Source of the DNA: an uncultured Planctomycetaceae bacterium
GTDB lineage: Bacteria; Planctomycetota; Planctomycetia; Planctomycetales; Planctomycetaceae
Direction: 5' to 3'
DNA length: 64,000 bases
NCBI GenBank assembly: GCA_963813715.1
Contig: CAWFAK010000008.1
Location: 384,001 to 448,000, forward strand
Shown here: positions 18,967 to 42,307 of the stretch, piece by piece
Layout: the number at the start of each line of letters is the position of its first letter
Position numbering within the stretch: position 1 is the stretch's first letter
The notes under the pieces: model-generated
Told to the model about the DNA's origin: nothing
Database searches by the model: none
Seen by the model: the letters and a program-made list of their open reading frames with translations, nothing else
Made by a program: the position numbers and the translations under genes

Positions 18967-19949
18967 CAACTTTTTTCATCTCGTGACGTAAGTCGTTTTT
19001 TGGCATCGCCGTCGCAAGGCGGTAAAGATGAGCTTGCCTTGCACCCAGCGGTGGACGCGTCGGTGGCCGCGAACCCAAGCGGGCAGTGCCTGCAATCCGG
19101 CGCTCCAAGTGCTCAAGTATCCGAAGTAGCGTTCGATCGCGTTACGTTCTTGATGGAGGGCACGGCCGAACGAGCTTTGCGGATTCGAGAGCAGTTCAAG
19201 AGATCGCAGCCGAGCGGGACTCTGACGCCGATGGCCACGGCGACGGCCAAATCCGTAACGCGGAGGTGCCACCAGTTGCACGCCGCGTTCGAGGCAGACG
19301 TCGTGTAACTGGTTCGAGTCGAAATTTGCATCGGCGAGCAAGTACCCTTGCACAGCCGCTTGCTTCAACATCCGCCGCCCCATCGCCCGCTCATCCTTTT
19401 GCATGGGAGCCACGCGCCAGGCAGCGATCGAGCCATCGCTGCCGACCACCGCGTGTAGCTTGTACCCTTTGGCTTTGCAGCCCGCGGCGCGGCCGTACCC
19501 AGCTTGCCGGTCTTTCGAGCAACCGCCGATCGGCAGAGGCTTGCCATCGATCATCCAATACAGGGGCTTGTTCCCACGAGGAGCCAGTTCAGAACGTTCG
19601 ATCTCTTGCAGCATTTGCTGGACCTCGGCACTCCGCAGTCGTCTCGACATGGTGCTCGACGATGGCAATTTGCGGCGACGCTCATGCAGCGGCCAGTTCC
19701 GAAGATCGCACGCCCAGGACACAGGCCGACCGTGCAGAACGGCCCACAGCCAAACCTGCACAATGTCGTCTGCCCCGTATCGTTCCCGCGTGCACCGACG
19801 AAGCTTGCTCGCCTGTTTGAGAAGGATCAAAATCGCCTTCCAGAGTTGGTGTTCCACATCCGTCTCCTTTCGTGTGGTTACGATTGAGACTATGTGTAGC
19901 ACCAACTTTTTATTGCGCAAGTCTTTATGACTCCTCGCGCAAAAAGCTG
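18967..19949 (-). mobile_element. Insertion sequence copy 1 (983 bp, IS982/IS5-like DDE), inserted in a family A REP
   Basis: Short terminal IRs CAACTTTTT / AAAAAGCTG, flanked by TCAC at 18963-18966 and 19950-19953; near-identical to 41215-42199. Confidence 0.92.
18976..19857 (-). CDS. DDE transposase (DDE_Tnp_1-like), 293 aa
   Basis: IDGKPLP, GYKLH, LLADANFD, RNAIERYF; GTG start with AAAGGAG RBS. Confidence 0.9.
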   Translation of the reverse strand: MEHQLWKAILILLKQASKLRRCTRERYGADDIVQVWLWAVLHGRPVSWACDLRNWPLHERRRKLPSSSTMSRRLRSAEVQQMLQEIERSELAPRGNKPLYWMIDGKPLPIGGCSKDRQAGYGRAAGCKAKGYKLHAVVGSDGSIAAWRVAPMQKDERAMGRRMLKQAAVQGYLLADANFDSNQLHDVCLERGVQLVAPPRYGFGRRRGHRRQSPARLRSLELLSNPQSSFGRALHQERNAIERYFGYLSTWSAGLQALPAWVRGHRRVHRWVQGKLIFTALRRRCQKTTYVTR

Positions 19950-20032
19950 TCACGCTTCGGGTTGGTAAAGACGCCCCTGGCTCACGCTTCGCGTTGGTGT
20001 GTCGTCTTACTAACCCGAAGCGTCAGCGCGGG
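19950..20032. repeat. Family A REP cluster (CCTCGCTSACGCTTCGGGTTRGT): interrupted unit, direct unit 19976-20000, inverted unit 20009-20032
   Basis: Same motif at 32341-32398, 42200-42251 and 46213-46275. Confidence 0.85.
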
Positions 20033-31094: not shown

Positions 31095-31188
31095 GAGGTT
31101 TGCGCGACGGGAGGGTTCGCGCGGCAGGGTTTCGCGCGAGACGGAACGCTTTTCGACTTCAGTCTAACAGGTGAATGGCCCGCCGCAG

Positions 31189-32257
31189 ATGGACGAATTA
31201 GCCGCCTACGACTACGAGCTGCCGGCCGAGCTGATCGCGACGGAGCCGTTGCCCCGCCGCGACGCCGCGCGTTTGCTCGTCGTCGACCGCTCGACCGGAC
31301 GCCTCGAGCACCGCAGCGTCAGCGACCTACCGGAAATTCTGCGCCCGGGCGATCGCCTCGTCTTGAACGACACGCGGGTCGTCCCGGCCCGGCTGTTCGG
31401 CATACGGAAGGCCACCGGCGGCAAATGGGACGGGCTGTTTCTCGAAACCGACGCCGCCGGTCATTGGCGGCTGATCGGCCACTCGGGCGGCAAGCTGCAG
31501 GCGGGCGAGACGCTGGTGATTGCTCCCGCTCACCACCCCGAGTCTCCCGCGCGGCTGGAACTGACTCTGCTCGCCTGCGACGCCGAGGGAATTTGGACCG
31601 CGGCTCCCACCGCCACTTCCCGCATTTGATCGGTCGGCCGTCGCTCTGCTCGAAGAATTCGGCACCGTTCCGCTGCCTCCTTATCTGCACCGCAAGCTGG
31701 GGGCCACGCTCGACTGGGACCGCTACCAGACGACGTTCGCCGAGCGGCCCGGTGCGGTTGCCGCCCCGACCGCCGGTCTGCACTTCACGCCCGAACTGCT
31801 CGAACGCTGCGACCGCCGCGGCATTCCCCGAACGTTCGTCACGCTGCACGTGGGCATCGGCACCTTTCGACCAATCAGCGTCGAACGGCTGAGCGAGCAC
31901 ACGATGCACGCCGAGTGGTGCGAACTTTCGCCGACGGCCAGCACGACGCTGAACGACACACGCGCAGCCGGCGGCCGCATCGTCGCCGTCGGCACGACGA
32001 GCGTCCGCACGCTGGAGACGGCATCCCACGACGGCCAGTTCACTCCGTGGAGCGGCCCAACGCGGATCTTCATCCGGCCCCCGTATCAATTCGGCGGCGT
32101 CGATTGCCTGCTGACGAATTTCCACCTGCCCCGCTCGACGCTGTTCGTCCTGGTCAGTGCGCTGGCCGGCCTGGAGCTGATCCAGCGGGCCTACGCGGAA
32201 GCCGTCCGCGAACGCTATCGGTTCTACAGCTATGGCGACGCGATGCTCATCGTGTAG
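31189..32257 (+). CDS. queA: S-adenosylmethionine:tRNA ribosyltransferase-isomerase; frameshifts near 31600-31670
   Basis: YDYELPAELIA, LNDTRVVPARL, AAPTAGLHFT, LHVGIGTF, VGTTSVRTLE, TNFHLPRST, YRFYSYGDAM. Confidence 0.93.
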
Positions 32258-32398: not shown

Positions 32399-32437
32399 CT
32401 CTTGCAGGGTGGCCCGGCTTGCATCTTCGGCCGCAAT

Positions 32438-34486
32438 GTGGTGGATTCGGAAGAGCCAATCACGATCGATCTCGATCGTCGCACTCCAATTCCGGGCCCG
32501 TCCACAAGTGACCAACCGACCGACATCCGCAGCAACGAATCCCTCGGGAGGCCCCGGCGCCCCGAGAGCCCCGCTCTCTCAGTGGACCGCCGCGAACTGG
32601 TCGTGGCTCTGCTGTTGTTCGGCTCGACGCTGCTCGTCTATGCCCAAGTCTGGAATTTCGGGTATTGCATCCTCGACGACAGCGCCTACGTCACCGACAA
32701 CGGTTACGTCCAGCAAGGACTCACGCGGGCGGGAGTCGAATGGAGCTTCACGACGGTCCACGACGCCAACTGGATTCCGCTCACGTGGATCTCGTTGATG
32801 CTCGATAGCGATCTCTACGGCGTTCGCCCCGGCGGATATCACTTCACGAATGCCCTCTTGCACGCCGCGAATGCCGTGCTGCTTCTGCTGGCGTTGTCGC
32901 GGGCAACGGGAAGTCTGTTTCGCAGCGGATTTGTCGCCGGGCTGTTCGCTTTGCATCCGCTGCATGTCGAATCGGTGGCGTGGATCGCCGAGCGGAAGGA
33001 CGTCCTGAGCATTTTCTTCGGACTGCTCTCGCTATTGGCCTACGTCCGCTACGCGACCGGAGCCAGCCGCTGGAACTTGGGGGTTTCATGGCTGTGCCTG
33101 GTCGCGAGCTTGGCGTCGAAACAAACGCTGGTGACGCTGCCGTTCGTTTTTTTGCTATTGGACTATTGGCCGCTGGGCCACTGGACCGCCGCCGAGCCGA
33201 GTCCCGCACCGAGCGCACGGCCAGCAAAGACTCGCGGAAAGAGCCGAGCGAAGGCCGCCAAGCGTGAACCGCGAATTTCCCGGTGGAATCGTCCGGCGTT
33301 ACGACTGGTGAGTGAAAAGATTCCGTTCTTCGCCGTCGCCGCGATTTTTTGCGGAGTCGCTTTGAAGGCCCAGCGCGATTACGGTGCCGTGATCGCCCTG
33401 CAGGGCATTTCGTTCCCCTTGCGTTGCATGAACGCGATCTACGTCTACGCCGCCTATTTGGAGAAAACCCTGGTCCCGTACGATCTGGCGATCTACTACC
33501 CGCACCCGTTCGGGACTTTGAGTTGGCTCGCGGTGGGACTGGCGGCCACTCTGCTTTTGGCCGTGAGCGCCGCGGCGATCGTGTTCATTCGCCGTTTGCC
33601 GTTTCTGTTTGTCGGTTGGTTCTGGTACCTCGGCACGCTGGTGCCGATGATCGGCCTCGTGCAGATCGGCTCGCAGCAGATGGGCGATCGCTACACGTAC
33701 TTCCCGCTGATCGGTGTGTTTCTGGCCGTGACGTGGCTGGTTGCTGAGTTCGTGCCGGCCGGAGTTTTGCGCACGCGAGTCCTGCCGGCGGCCGCGGTGG
33801 CGAGCTTGGTGCTCTTAGCGGCGACGTCCTACTCCCAAATTGGCTACTGGCACGACAACATCACCCTCCTGCGGCATTCCGAGGAATGCACGGCCGACAG
33901 CGGCGCAATTCACGAATTCCTGGGCAGCGCGGAGCTGCTGGAAGGCGACCCCAACGAGGCGGTGGCCGAGCTGAAAAAGGCGCTGGCGTTTTCCCCGAAC
34001 TATGGGCCCGTGCATCGCAATCTGGGAACCGCCTATCAACGGCTCGGCCGATTCACCGAGGCGTCCGCCGAATATCAAACCGCCATTGGGCTCGGCGAGC
34101 AGGATCCCGAGACCTACGTCGATCTGGGCGTGACGCTGTTCAATCGCGGGCAGGCCGAGGCCTCCAAAGCCCAATTTCTCCAGGCGCTCGCGATCGATCC
34201 CAATTCGGTCCCCGCCAACTACAATTTGGCGCTCGCCTGTTCGGAAACCAAGGACTTCGCCGCCGCCGTCACCTACGGGGAGCGGGCCCTGCAACTCGAT
34301 CCCAACCTGGCGAGTTGCCACGTCTGCGTTGCGCTCGCGCTAGAGGCCCAAGGACACCTGGACGAGTCGATTCGCCACATGCAGCGGGCCGTCGAACTCG
34401 AGCCCAACGACCAGGCCGCCCGGCAAGAATTGGCGCGGATGCAGTCGCAGCAGCCAAACGCCTTTCAGACTTCGCCGCCTCGCTAG
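32438..34486 (+). CDS. Multi-TM GT-C-like protein with C-terminal TPRs (TMTC-like); start uncertain
   Basis: LDDSAYV, NWIPLT, LFALHPLHVESVAWIAERKDVL, MGDRYTYFP, followed by tandem TPRs. Confidence 0.85.
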   Translation: MVDSEEPITIDLDRRTPIPGPSTSDQPTDIRSNESLGRPRRPESPALSVDRRELVVALLLFGSTLLVYAQVWNFGYCILDDSAYVTDNGYVQQGLTRAGVEWSFTTVHDANWIPLTWISLMLDSDLYGVRPGGYHFTNALLHAANAVLLLLALSRATGSLFRSGFVAGLFALHPLHVESVAWIAERKDVLSIFFGLLSLLAYVRYATGASRWNLGVSWLCLVASLASKQTLVTLPFVFLLLDYWPLGHWTAAEPSPAPSARPAKTRGKSRAKAAKREPRISRWNRPALRLVSEKIPFFAVAAIFCGVALKAQRDYGAVIALQGISFPLRCMNAIYVYAAYLEKTLVPYDLAIYYPHPFGTLSWLAVGLAATLLLAVSAAAIVFIRRLPFLFVGWFWYLGTLVPMIGLVQIGSQQMGDRYTYFPLIGVFLAVTWLVAEFVPAGVLRTRVLPAAAVASLVLLAATSYSQIGYWHDNITLLRHSEECTADSGAIHEFLGSAELLEGDPNEAVAELKKALAFSPNYGPVHRNLGTAYQRLGRFTEASAEYQTAIGLGEQDPETYVDLGVTLFNRGQAEASKAQFLQALAIDPNSVPANYNLALACSETKDFAAAVTYGERALQLDPNLASCHVCVALALEAQGHLDESIRHMQRAVELEPNDQAARQELARMQSQQPNAFQTSPPR

Positions 34487-34595
34487 AGACAGACAGATCG
34501 AATTCGCAGCCACAGCTCGAATTGGCTGCGCCAGGCGGGGTTTTTGTTTGCGCCGAATCCGCCGCTAGAATGACGGCATGAGCGACAGTCAGGGC

Positions 34596-34667
34596 CCGCC
34601 CTTAGTTCAATGGTTAGAACGCGCTCCTTATAAGGGCGTAATCCGGGTTCGATTCCCGGCGGGCGGA
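34596..34667 (+). tRNA. tRNA-Ile with UAU anticodon (CCA not encoded)
   Basis: Cloverleaf: acceptor CCGCCCT/CGGGCGG (one mismatch), D-stem GTTC/GAAC, anticodon stem CGCTC/GGGCG with loop CT-TAT-AA (34629-34631), T-arm CCGGG-TTCGATT-CCCGG, discriminator A. Confidence 0.9.
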
Positions 34668-34754
34668 TTTCCGCCCGACATAAACTCCCGTGCCGCTGAC
34701 GACCACGTGACACTCCCGACCAGCTGACACGATCTACTCGACGACGCCCACAAA

Positions 34755-36254
34755 ATGACGCTGCCGATGAATGCTGCTGACACGTCCGCGGCCCCCTCCC
34801 GTTCGCCCGGTTCGGGCACTGCTCCCGCCCTGCTCGCCCGGTTTCGCGACATCGTCGGCGAAGGCGGCCTGCTGTCGGCGGCCGAAGAGCTGCTCGTCTA
34901 CGAGTGCGATGGCTACGTCGTGGAGAAGAAGGCGCCCGACGTCGTGCTGTTCCCCGAAACGCGGGAGCAAGTGGTCGCCATCGTCAAAGCGTGCAACGAA
35001 TTCGACGTCCCGTTCGTGCCGCGGGGTGCCGGGACGAGCCTGTCGGGCGGCTGCCTGCCGGTCGGCGGCGGCGTAATGATCGCGCTTACGCGGATGAAGC
35101 GGATTCTCGAGGTCAATCTCCGCGATCGGTACGCCGTCGTCGAGCCGGGCCTCGTCAACGTCCACCTCACGCAGCATCTCAAAGGGACCGGCTACCACTA
35201 CGCTCCCGATCCGTCGAGCCAGGGCGCCTGCACGATCGGCGGCAACGTGGCCACGAACTCCGGCGGCCCGCACACGCTGAAATACGGCGTGACGGTGAAT
35301 CACGTGCTGGCCGTCGAAGTCGTGCTGCCCGACGGCTCGGTCGTCGAGCTGGGCAGTCCGACCGGCGACTCGCCCGGCTACGATCTGACGGGGCTTTTCG
35401 TCGGCAGCGAAGGGACGTTTGGAATCTGCACACGAATCACCGTGCGACTGACCCGCAACCCGGCCGCCTATCGCACGCTGTTGGGCATCTTCGAGACGGT
35501 CGCGGACGCCACGCAGGCGATCAGCCGCATCATCGGCGCGGGCATCATCCCGGCGGCCCTCGAAATGATGGACCAGGGGATCGTCGGCGCGGTCGAGGCG
35601 GCGTTTCATTTCGGCTTTCCGCTCGACGCCGGCGCCGTCCTCTTAATTGAGGTCGACGGGCTGGAAGTGGCCGTCGACGAAGAGGCCGAAAAAATCGTCG
35701 CGCTCTGCCAGGCAGCCGGAGCCCGCGAAGTCCGCCGGGCCACGACCGAAAAAGAACGCCTGCTCTTGTGGAAGTGCCGCAAGCAGGCCTTCGGCGCGAT
35801 CGGCCGCTTGAGCCCCAGCTACTGCACGCAAGACGGCGTCGTCCCCCGCACGCGGCTGCCGGAAATTCTGGCTTTCATCACCGAGTGCGGCACTCGCCAC
35901 GGCATCCGCATCGTGAACGTGTTTCACGCCGGCGACGGCAACATCCATCCGATCCTGCTCTTCGACGAACGCGACACCGCCCAAGTCGCCCGCGTCCTCG
36001 AAGCCAGCGACGAAATTCTCGGCAAGTGCATCGAAATGGGCGGCAGCGTGACGGGCGAACACGGCATCGGCGTCGAAAAAATCAGCTTCATGGACAAACT
36101 CTTCACGCCCGACGACCTGGCCGTGATGCGACTCGTCCACGACGTCTTCAATCCCACCGGCCGCTGCAGCCCCCAAAAAATGCTCCCCACCGCCGGCGGC
36201 TGCGGCACCGAGCAAATCGAACGCAGTGCCCCGGGCCGCCGGGCGGCGCTGTGA
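34755..36254 (+). CDS. glcD: Glycolate oxidase FAD-linked subunit
   Basis: PRGAGTSLSGG, APDPSSQGACTIGGN, GSEGTFG, HAGDGNIHP, GEHGIGVEK. Confidence 0.9.
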   Translation: MTLPMNAADTSAAPSRSPGSGTAPALLARFRDIVGEGGLLSAAEELLVYECDGYVVEKKAPDVVLFPETREQVVAIVKACNEFDVPFVPRGAGTSLSGGCLPVGGGVMIALTRMKRILEVNLRDRYAVVEPGLVNVHLTQHLKGTGYHYAPDPSSQGACTIGGNVATNSGGPHTLKYGVTVNHVLAVEVVLPDGSVVELGSPTGDSPGYDLTGLFVGSEGTFGICTRITVRLTRNPAAYRTLLGIFETVADATQAISRIIGAGIIPAALEMMDQGIVGAVEAAFHFGFPLDAGAVLLIEVDGLEVAVDEEAEKIVALCQAAGAREVRRATTEKERLLLWKCRKQAFGAIGRLSPSYCTQDGVVPRTRLPEILAFITECGTRHGIRIVNVFHAGDGNIHPILLFDERDTAQVARVLEASDEILGKCIEMGGSVTGEHGIGVEKISFMDKLFTPDDLAVMRLVHDVFNPTGRCSPQKMLPTAGGCGTEQIERSAPGRRAAL

Positions 36255-41214: not shown

Positions 41215-42199
41215 CAACTTTTTTCATCTCGTGACGTAAGTCGTTTTTTGGCATCGCCGTCGCAAGGCGGTAAAGATGAGCTTGCCTTGCACCCAGCGGT
41301 GGACGCGTCGGTGGCCGCGAACCCAAGCGGGCAGTGCCTGCAATCCGGCGCTCCAAGTGCTCAAGTATCCGAAGTAGCGTTCGATCGCGTTACGTTCTTG
41401 ATGGAGGGCACGGCCGAACGAGCTTTGCGGATTCGAGAGCAGTTCAAGAGATCGCAGCCGAGCGGGACTCTGACGCCGATGGCCACGGCGACGGCCAAAT
41501 CCGTAACGCGGAGGTGCCACCAGTTGCACGCCGCGTTCGAGGCAGACGTCGTGTAACTGGTTCGAGTCGAAATTTGCATCGGCGAGCAAGTACCCTTGCA
41601 CAGCCGCTTGCTTCAACATCCGCCGCCCCATCGCCCGCTCATCCTTTTGCATGGGAGCCACGCGCGAGGCAGCGATCGAGCCATCGCTGCCGACCACCGC
41701 GTGTAGCTTGTACCCTTTGGCTTTGCAGCCCGCGGCGCGGCCGTACCCAGCTTGCCGGTCTTTCGAGCAACCGCCGATCGGCAGAGGCTTGCCATCGATC
41801 ATCCAATACAGGGGCTTGTTCCCACGAGGAGCCAGTTCAGAACGTTCGATCTCTTGCAGCATTTGCTGGACCTCGGCACTCCGCAGTCGTCTCGACATGG
41901 TGCTCGACGATGGCAATTTGCGGCGACGCTCATGCAGCGGCCAGTTCCGAAGATCGCACGCCCAGGACACAGGCCGACCGTGCAGAACGGCCCACAGCCA
42001 AACCTGCACAATGTCGTCTGCCCCGTATCGTTCCCGCGTGCGCCGACGACGCTTGCTCGCCTGTTTGAGAAGGATCAAAATCGCCTTCCAGAGTTGGTGT
42101 TCCACATCCGTCTCCTTTCGTGTGGTTACGATTGAGACTATGTGTAGCACCAACTTTTTATTGTGCAAGTCTTTATGACTCCTCGCGCAAAAAGAGCTG
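41215..42199 (-). mobile_element. Insertion sequence copy 2 (985 bp), inserted in a family A REP
   Basis: TCAC duplication at 41211-41214 and 42200-42203; differs from copy 1 by about 4 substitutions and a 2-nt insertion at the end. Confidence 0.92.
41224..42105 (-). CDS. DDE transposase, 293 aa
   Basis: Same protein as 18976-19857 with three amino-acid changes. Confidence 0.9.
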   Translation of the reverse strand: MEHQLWKAILILLKQASKRRRRTRERYGADDIVQVWLWAVLHGRPVSWACDLRNWPLHERRRKLPSSSTMSRRLRSAEVQQMLQEIERSELAPRGNKPLYWMIDGKPLPIGGCSKDRQAGYGRAAGCKAKGYKLHAVVGSDGSIAASRVAPMQKDERAMGRRMLKQAAVQGYLLADANFDSNQLHDVCLERGVQLVAPPRYGFGRRRGHRRQSPARLRSLELLSNPQSSFGRALHQERNAIERYFGYLSTWSAGLQALPAWVRGHRRVHRWVQGKLIFTALRRRCQKTTYVTR

Positions 42200-42251
42200 T
42201 CACGCTTCGGGTTAGTGAATACGACAGACCAACCCAAAGCGTGAGCGAGGG
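42200..42251. repeat. Family A REP pair (left unit interrupted by the IS; inverted unit 42228-42251)
   Basis: TCACGCTTCGGGTTAGTG ... ACCAACCCAAAGCGTGAGCGAGGG. Confidence 0.8.
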
Positions 42252-42281
42252 CGACTTTAGGATCCGCGTGCCACGCCAGAT

Positions 42282-42307
42282 CTACTACCACGGTAGTAGT
42301 TCGTCAA
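42282..42307 (-). promoter_or_regulatory. Candidate BlaI operator palindrome inside a minus-strand promoter
   Basis: Perfect inverted repeat CTACTACC-AC-GGTAGTAG (42282-42299) next to a TTGACG -35 (42302-42307, minus strand). Confidence 0.6.

Follow-up and report, generated by a model that had tools for sequence, protein, structure and literature searches.

The gene described here encodes a tRNA-Ile with a UAU anticodon; it is well conserved and comes from a soil planctomycete. We read it as an extra AUA decoder of a known kind and not as a new decoding system; what is unusual is its setting, solitary and coupled to a promoter-like module. Judged from sequence comparisons, it is probably a working supplementary decoder that is redundant with TilS, comes from a mobile pool of tRNAs in the family and has been maintained by selection acting on the RNA. 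In bacteria, tRNA-Ile(UAU) is generally seen as a rare exception linked to the loss of TilS. The window is the whole 64-kb stretch of DNA that was analysed (G000:C8:384001-448000), and the source genome, G000, is a 7.49-Mb assembly of 18 contigs with 63% GC and a completeness of 82.6%. Because the assembly is incomplete and contains indel errors, which break IleRS and queA, the gene counts given for it are lower bounds. The features of the locus are collected in Table 1.

Table 1. Features at and around the tRNA-Ile(UAU) gene, in window coordinates.
Feature	Position	Strand	Remarks
TPR-repeat protein, 694 aa, upstream neighbour	32402..34486	+	Pfam TPR families
Copy of the module (promoter-like, with start codon), AATCCGCCGCTAGAATGACGGCATGAGCGAC	34555..34586	+	TAGAAT 34566-34571, ATG 34578-34580
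Predicted 5' leader of the precursor tRNA, 18 nt	34578..34595	+	Predicted from the spacing TAGAAT, 6 nt, ATG
tRNA-Ile(UAU) gene	34596..34667	+	72 nt, no encoded CCA; ARAGORN, Rfam RF00005, cloverleaf reading
Conserved 3' trailer	34668..34696	+	CCGCCCG (34671-34677) can pair with the 3' acceptor strand (hairpin in fold)
FAD-linked oxidase, 499 aa, downstream neighbour	34755..36254	+	Pfam PF01565, PF02913

ARAGORN finds a single tRNA in the window, tRNA-Ile(tat) at 34596-34667. The Rfam model RF00005 matches it over its full length (1-71 of 71) with 58.9 bits against a gathering threshold of 29 (E-value 3.5e-10), so that both programs agree with the initial annotation, which had read a clean cloverleaf with a UAU anticodon from the letters. 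The anticodon loop reads CUUAUAA, i.e., seven nucleotides with C32, U33, U34, A35, U36, A37 and A38, and the T and D loops are canonical. Every identity base named in that annotation (A37, A38, A73, C4-G69, U12-A23 and C29-G41) is present in the sequence. Together these bases form what we take to be the isoleucine identity set of E. coli IleRS; the tRNA satisfies this E. coli set in full, and the host IleRS, being of type 2, may have an identity set that differs. Additional features are a C1-G72 pair, a variable loop of 4 nt and a U7.C66 mismatch at the base of the acceptor stem. The mismatch would weaken this stem and counts against a working tRNA. The missing CCA is normal for the genome: of its 87 tRNA genes, hardly any encodes it. 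The Rfam score falls near the bottom of the range for housekeeping tRNAs scanned in G000 (58.8-76.5 bits) and exceeds that of most tRNAs on the large tRNA array of the same genome (31.5-67.6 bits), which mostly fall below the housekeeping ones.

It is quite improbable that the gene specifies a tRNA-shaped RNA that does not decode isoleucine, i.e., one that carries another amino acid, serves as an attachment or recombination site or acts as a processing signal for transcripts from the module. The C1-G72 pair and the U7.C66 mismatch, which are atypical of a housekeeping tRNA-Ile, would suit such a role, as would the position of the tRNA in a slot that is filled by a small ORF behind other copies of the module. 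However, the presumed E. coli identity set is complete, the T and D loops are canonical and the Rfam match is full-length, and neither an integrase (by Pfam) nor half-tRNA scars were found nearby.

The T at 34629 is real rather than a sequencing error, because the same 72 bases were found in several independent sources. They recur unchanged in G002, which is a separately assembled genome of a second species in the genus and has flanks that are about 89% identical, and in two metagenome contigs, one of which is syntenic (L126, 95.7%) and the other of which has unrelated flanks (L127). Contigs from three studies (runs X1 and X2, both DNA, and run X4, an RNA library) cover at least 34557-34864 and show the tRNA with no listed difference. 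The initial annotation had marked this base for checking in reads, and the T is upheld by the independent assemblies and the public-run contigs. A same-genus twin locus with an identical tRNA (L053) comes from an uncultured Planctomycetaceae. In the source assembly, the sole IleRS gene (G000:C9:59984-63530) is broken by at least four frameshifts and queA (window 31171-32254) lies in two pieces. Both splits point to assembly indel errors, which probably contribute to the completeness figure of 82.6%. The errors of this assembly are indels, and the sequence of the tRNA is backed by the independent sources.

The comparison with G002 also reveals where the locus is conserved. The block at 34558-34696 has one difference between the two genomes, compared with 131 of 620 aligned positions in the flanks (about 21%); for the tRNA itself, the count is 0 of 72 (Fisher p 1e-7 against the flanks). 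A second comparison is offered by L127, in which the module, the tRNA and the trailer (window 34563-34684, 122 nt, 94% identity) are found in unrelated DNA of 56.5% GC, with a Schlafen/AlbA_2-like gene on one side and a run of small ORFs plus a second copy of the module on the other. Here too the tRNA is unchanged (0 of 72), against 7 differences in 50 bases of module and trailer (p 0.0015). As the tRNA stayed the same while its surroundings diverged in both comparisons, the RNA is most likely under selection. It is concluded that the tRNA and the promoter-like module travel together as a single small unit.

Two other explanations of this conservation have to be weighed. The tRNA may be a selfish or neutral passenger, i.e., a recently moved fragment of an array or a cassette that is intact through its youth and has no role in translation. 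The patchy distribution of the tRNA, the occurrence of the unit at two unrelated loci, the tiny demand for AUA decoding in a genome that has TilS, and the lower Rfam scores of the array tRNAs in G000 all fit a passenger. Nevertheless, this explanation is considered unlikely: the tRNA has no change in 72 bases against a diverged leader, trailer and flanks in two independent comparisons, and G000, G002 and L126, with flanks that are 89-96% identical, have all retained it at one and the same locus. The other explanation is that the conservation reflects a coding sequence, that of a peptide starting at the module ATG (34578), and that the tRNA-like fold is incidental. A frame is indeed open from 34578 through the tRNA, giving 49 aa in G000 and 43 aa in L127. 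However, there are no synonymous changes over the 72 nt, the codon changes in the flanking parts alter the peptide, and a chance fold would have to reach a cloverleaf of 58.9 bits; a peptide is hardly credible and is disfavoured. The preferred reading remains that of a working tRNA under selection.

The surroundings of the gene are those of a housekeeping region. Over roughly 20 kb in either direction, Pfam identifies mraZ, rsmH, a PBP, a GT4 transferase, queA, the TPR protein, the FAD-linked oxidase and BlaR1/BlaI-like genes, together with two IS transposases. No phage gene or integrase was detected by Pfam from 14.6 to 55.3 kb of the window, which bears out the earlier statement that the gene lies outside any obvious prophage. 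Neither half-tRNA repeats nor nested tRNA fragments were found in 34300-34900, and the GC content at the locus (0.62-0.63) matches that of its surroundings. The closest other tRNA on the contig is more than 220 kb away. The two transposases are DDE_Tnp_1 (IS4-like) copies at 18976-19950 and 41224-42288, both on the minus strand, and the pair brackets about 21 kb with mraZ, rsmH, the PBP, queA, the tRNA and the BlaR1/BlaI-like genes.

The FAD-linked oxidase has an orthologue in all 11 other genomes of the genus. The tRNA has no counterpart at 10 orthologous loci of these genomes, i.e., nine FAD-oxidase loci and the TPR locus of G010. In G003, G009, G007 and G006, both the TPR gene and the tRNA are missing between the orthologues of the queA-like gene and the oxidase, and another gene abuts the oxidase. 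By BLAST, one of 40 relatives (G002) has the tRNA-Ile(UAU).

Upstream of the tRNA lies a copy of a module of about 30 nt (CCGCCGCTAGAATGACGGCATGAGCGAC) that is repeated in the genome. There are 37 copies by blastn-short in G000, and the core GAATGACGGCATG is found in 35 exact copies, each of which precedes a small ORF; copies at 92-100% identity are present in all 11 other genus genomes. Elsewhere the ATG of the module opens small and diverse ORFs of 5-132 aa, many of which start with MSDEP and many of which are hydrophobic. The tRNA begins 18 nt after this ATG, and so occupies the slot of the small ORF. We infer from the TAGAAT, its spacing and its repetition that the module acts as a promoter, and the predicted leader holds if transcription begins at the module ATG, like that of a leaderless mRNA. 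A scan of 34300-34900 for two-hexamer sigma-70 promoters and for terminators returned no promoter-like and no terminator-like site. The housekeeping tRNAs of G000 have sigma-70-like hexamers at similar distances, which is loosely supportive of a promoter in the module. The TAGAAT proposed as the -10 element in the initial annotation is thus present at 34566-34571, but it does not belong to a dedicated tRNA promoter, as it is part of a repeated module that starts small ORFs elsewhere. Among RNA libraries, a contig of run X4 (34557-34909) covers the tRNA plus the upstream gene region, which may reflect DNA carry-over or read-through, and the contigs of run X14 give no cover over the tRNA.

The module was sought at the other solitary UAU tRNAs and is absent at seven loci in the family and two in the phylum. 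A GAATACG or GATACG is seen some 20-35 nt upstream of seven solitary UAU tRNAs (L083, L086, L088, L094, L102, L032 and L033), and this motif may be a lineage-typical -10 element.

On the other side of the tRNA, the trailer contains AACTCCCGTGCC (34683-34694), which is the opening 12 nt of a junction element of about 55 nt; in the module-led arrays, this element comes after the stop codons of small ORFs. G000 contains 15 copies of the junction motif, which is found at ORF ends in the array on contig C15. Runs of such small ORFs (5-146 aa) were seen at G000:C15:99800-109100 (L128), at C5:1499300-1504100 (L129) and C5:442500-447000, and at C8:492998. Each ORF follows a module in which TAGAAT or an SD-like GAGGT precedes GACGGCATGAGCGACGAA, and many end with a junction that consists of the stop codon, ACTCCCGTGCCAATCGC, a small hairpin and CCCACTACC. 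The arrays are hypervariable: they are not conserved in G002 or G003, whereas their flanks are.

Integron cassettes and recombinase-associated immunity-gene arrays are likewise hypervariable runs of small ORFs that are separated by conserved junction sequences. The module-led arrays resemble both in their small ORFs and conserved junctions, with the tRNA filling one slot. However, the junction differs from that of integrons in that it spans the stop codon, an optional hairpin, the promoter or SD and the first codons, and is probably not an attC. The integron reading was rejected: no IntI was found in the 82.6% complete assembly (the best TIGR02249 score being 78.2 bits against a cut-off of 265), Rfam returned no family on the arrays except the tRNA, and none of six small ORFs matched Pfam at curated cut-offs. 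A more tentative proposal, rather doubtful at present, is that the tRNA is the cargo of an undescribed cassette system peculiar to this planctomycete genus, in which hypervariable runs of small ORFs are bracketed by conserved 5' and 3' junctions and the 122-nt unit would be a non-coding cassette that moves by recombination at the junctions. As part of this same doubtful reading, the 5' junction would be TAGAAT or SD followed by GACGGCATGAGCGAC, and the 3' junction the stop codon, ACTCCCGTGCCAATCGC and an optional hairpin. If true, such a system would provide a protein-independent way of spreading an AUA decoder.

To place the gene, a census was made with a pattern for UAU tRNAs that have C32, A37, A38 and a standard T-loop; the matches were checked by ARAGORN, and the counts are lower bounds. 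Within the genus, two of 12 genomes have a confirmed UAU tRNA (only G000 and G002), and a degenerate tRNA-like piece of 66 nt was found in G006. Confirmed carriers in the family number 27 of 121 genomes, G000 included. In the sample of the phylum, they number seven of 401, again with G000, and five of 380 outside the family. That UAU tRNAs are rare, as the initial annotation had it, applies to bacteria at large as described by Taniguchi et al. (2013) and in tRNADB-CE, which lists TAT tRNA genes in 19 bacterial species (PMC4013482), and Modrusan et al. (2026; PMC13752280) still speak of 'rare cases'. It does not apply to this family, where about a fifth of the sampled genomes carry such a tRNA, mostly on mobile arrays and sometimes as a stand-alone gene.

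Among the 26 other carriers of the family, the UAU tRNA is array-borne in 19 and solitary in seven. The array-borne gene adjoins Lys(UUU) in all 19, and the order Ile(GAU)-Lys(UUU)-Ile(UAU)-Lys(CUU) is seen in 16 of these; in the phylum sample, four of the six other UAU tRNAs are array-borne. G000 has an array of its own (C7:914718-919431, L110) with 32 tRNAs on one strand. It covers most amino acids and lacks both Met and Ile(UAU), and it reads Ile(GAU)-Lys(UUU)-Lys(CUU), in a gene order that is common to the arrays of many genomes of the family. The solitary UAU tRNA of G000 is 66-74% identical to the main array type. Against the seven other solitary genes, the identity is 61-66% in six cases and 43% in the remaining one. 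With the main array type the G000 tRNA has in common the length of 72 nt, the 4-nt variable loop and the C1-G72 pair. An identity of at most 74% over 72 nt, together with this architecture, hints at a shared origin of the array type and the gene studied here.

Similar tRNAs are also found further afield. The 17-nt anticodon arm CGCUCCUUAUAAGGGCG is identical in the UAU tRNAs of two Mollicutes genomes (L054 and L056) and of an Armatimonadales MAG (L055). The same arm occurs in the UAU tRNAs of 19 IMG/VR phage contigs, which have a similarly compact build and are 65-72% identical to the gene studied here. This suggests that one anticodon-arm design was converged on by, or spread among, distant bacteria and these phages. 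However, the phage UAU tRNA always adjoins a tRNA-Met(CAU) in a tRNA cluster, unlike the present gene with its phage-free surroundings, and among 50,697 phage records no relative reached 80% identity.

The genome possesses what the canonical lysidine route needs. A single tilS (C9:261330-261899) scores 180.6 bits with TIGR02432 against a cut-off of 93.6, and its ORF of 374 aa is intact. The tRNA set comprises 87 genes plus a tmRNA, with two Ile(GAU), one Ile(UAU) and three CAU tRNAs, of which one is initiator-like (a 1:72 mismatch and A11-U24) and two are of the elongator type. Both elongator-type CAU tRNAs are 96-100% identical in all five genus genomes tested. The acceptor and anticodon-stem features that were compared do not tell which of the two is tRNA-Ile2. 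The initial annotation had proposed looking for tilS and the CAU tRNA in the genome, and had left the choice between TilS-independent and redundant decoding of AUA. With tilS and three CAU tRNAs found, the decoding is most likely redundant and TilS independence is not supported, and the UAU tRNA would sit beside the TilS route.

It is consequently very improbable that AUA is read mainly or solely by the UAU tRNA, in the manner of Mycoplasma mobile, with tilS and tRNA-Ile2(CAU) on their way out. Such a replacement could draw on the fact that neither elongator CAU tRNA is distinguishable as tRNA-Ile2 and that one of them has an unusual C33. It is contradicted by the intact tilS, which scores above the curated cut-off, and by the conservation of both elongator CAU tRNAs even in members of the genus that have no UAU tRNA and must therefore decode AUA canonically. 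The CAU tRNA with the unusual base (C5:486776-486850, L107, with orthologues L114-L118) has the loop UCCAUAA and a G1.U72 pair. The C33 of its conserved U32-C33 stands in place of the near-universal U33, and this tRNA is conserved in all six genus genomes examined.

A supplementary decoder also needs a synthetase. The only IleRS of G000 is of type 2, as it scores 320 bits with 1ILE and 271 with PmIleRS2 of P. megaterium, against 126 with SaIleRS1 of S. aureus. Charging of the UAU tRNA by this eukaryote-like enzyme is plausible. A type 2 IleRS is also found in the tilS-less, UAU-using Bifidobacterium and Neorickettsia, according to Taniguchi et al. (2013; PMC3575796). On the other hand, Modrusan et al. 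(2026) describe IleRS2 as reading the anticodon more stringently than IleRS1; as this holds for PmIleRS2, efficient charging of a UAU tRNA is not assured. The test of Taniguchi et al. at the W905 position is inapplicable here, the IleRS being of type 2.

The demand for AUA decoding is small. AUA is the rarest sense codon, with 905 of 1,595,179 codons (0.57 per 1000, or 1.3% of Ile) in 4081 high-confidence ORFs. In a looser set, in which some of the ORFs are spurious, the share of AUA among Ile codons climbs from 4% to 10% with falling GC content of the ORF.

The closest precedent comes from the same phylum. Kim et al. (2016; PMC4807772) reported that several Planctomycetes, all Rhodopirellula among them, carry a canonical, single-copy tRNA-UAU in degenerate tRNA clusters; they considered it horizontally acquired and proposed that it aids the translation of acquired genes that are richer in AUA. 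This was the only report found in the literature on tRNA-UAU or Ile-TAT in Planctomycetes. The present gene has the phylum, the single copy, the canonical structure, the rare AUA codon and the proposed origin and role in common with it. However, the tRNA-UAU of that account lies 'exclusively within degenerate tRNA clusters', whereas the present one is solitary and stands behind a module, and the 32-gene array of its genome has no UAU tRNA.

Other precedents differ in the decoding machinery. Taniguchi et al. (2013) named nine bacteria that lack tilS and have a TAT tRNA gene, and reported that E. coli IleRS1 charges UAU poorly. In their account, tilS and tRNA-Ile(TAT) occur together in Cyanothece PCC 7424, Ferrimonas balearica, Lactobacillus casei and L. 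plantarum, for which redundant decoding was proposed. G000 is like these species in having both routes in one genome, but they have a type 1 IleRS, in which a Trp or Arg at the position of E. coli W905 is predictive, and G000 has type 2. The tRNA-Ile2(UAU) of Mycoplasma mobile, as described there, is alike in its UAU anticodon and A37. That organism, however, has neither tilS nor tRNA-Ile(CAU) and uses an adapted IleRS and ribosome with an unmodified U34, while G000 has tilS.

In the mechanism proposed, the gene would have been drawn from the pool of UAU tRNAs in the family, most of which are carried on large, horizontally spread tRNA arrays. In the lineage of G000 and G002, an intergenic region among housekeeping genes would then have received a unit of about 122-139 nt (the module, the 18-nt leader, the tRNA and the trailer). 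The TAGAAT of the module would drive transcription, and the precursor would be processed by RNase P and at its 3' end, followed by the addition of CCA. After formation of t6A37, the type 2 IleRS would charge the tRNA with isoleucine, and the tRNA, discriminating against AUG, would read AUA mainly in acquired genes that are AUA-richer and lower in GC. It would supplement, without replacing, the canonical route in which tRNA-Ile2(CAU) is made AUA-specific via TilS. Cultured members of the family are a practical place to study how a tRNA with U34 avoids AUG. They would also suit the questions of whether a type 2 IleRS accepts UAU and whether an extra AUA decoder aids foreign genes that are richer in AUA.

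Outside the window, a further ARAGORN tRNA with an uncommon anticodon was noted at G000:C8:182792-182863 (L113). Its anticodon is UUA, i.e., of the ochre-suppressor type, and it scores 61.3 bits with Rfam and has an unusual T-loop, ATCGTAC.
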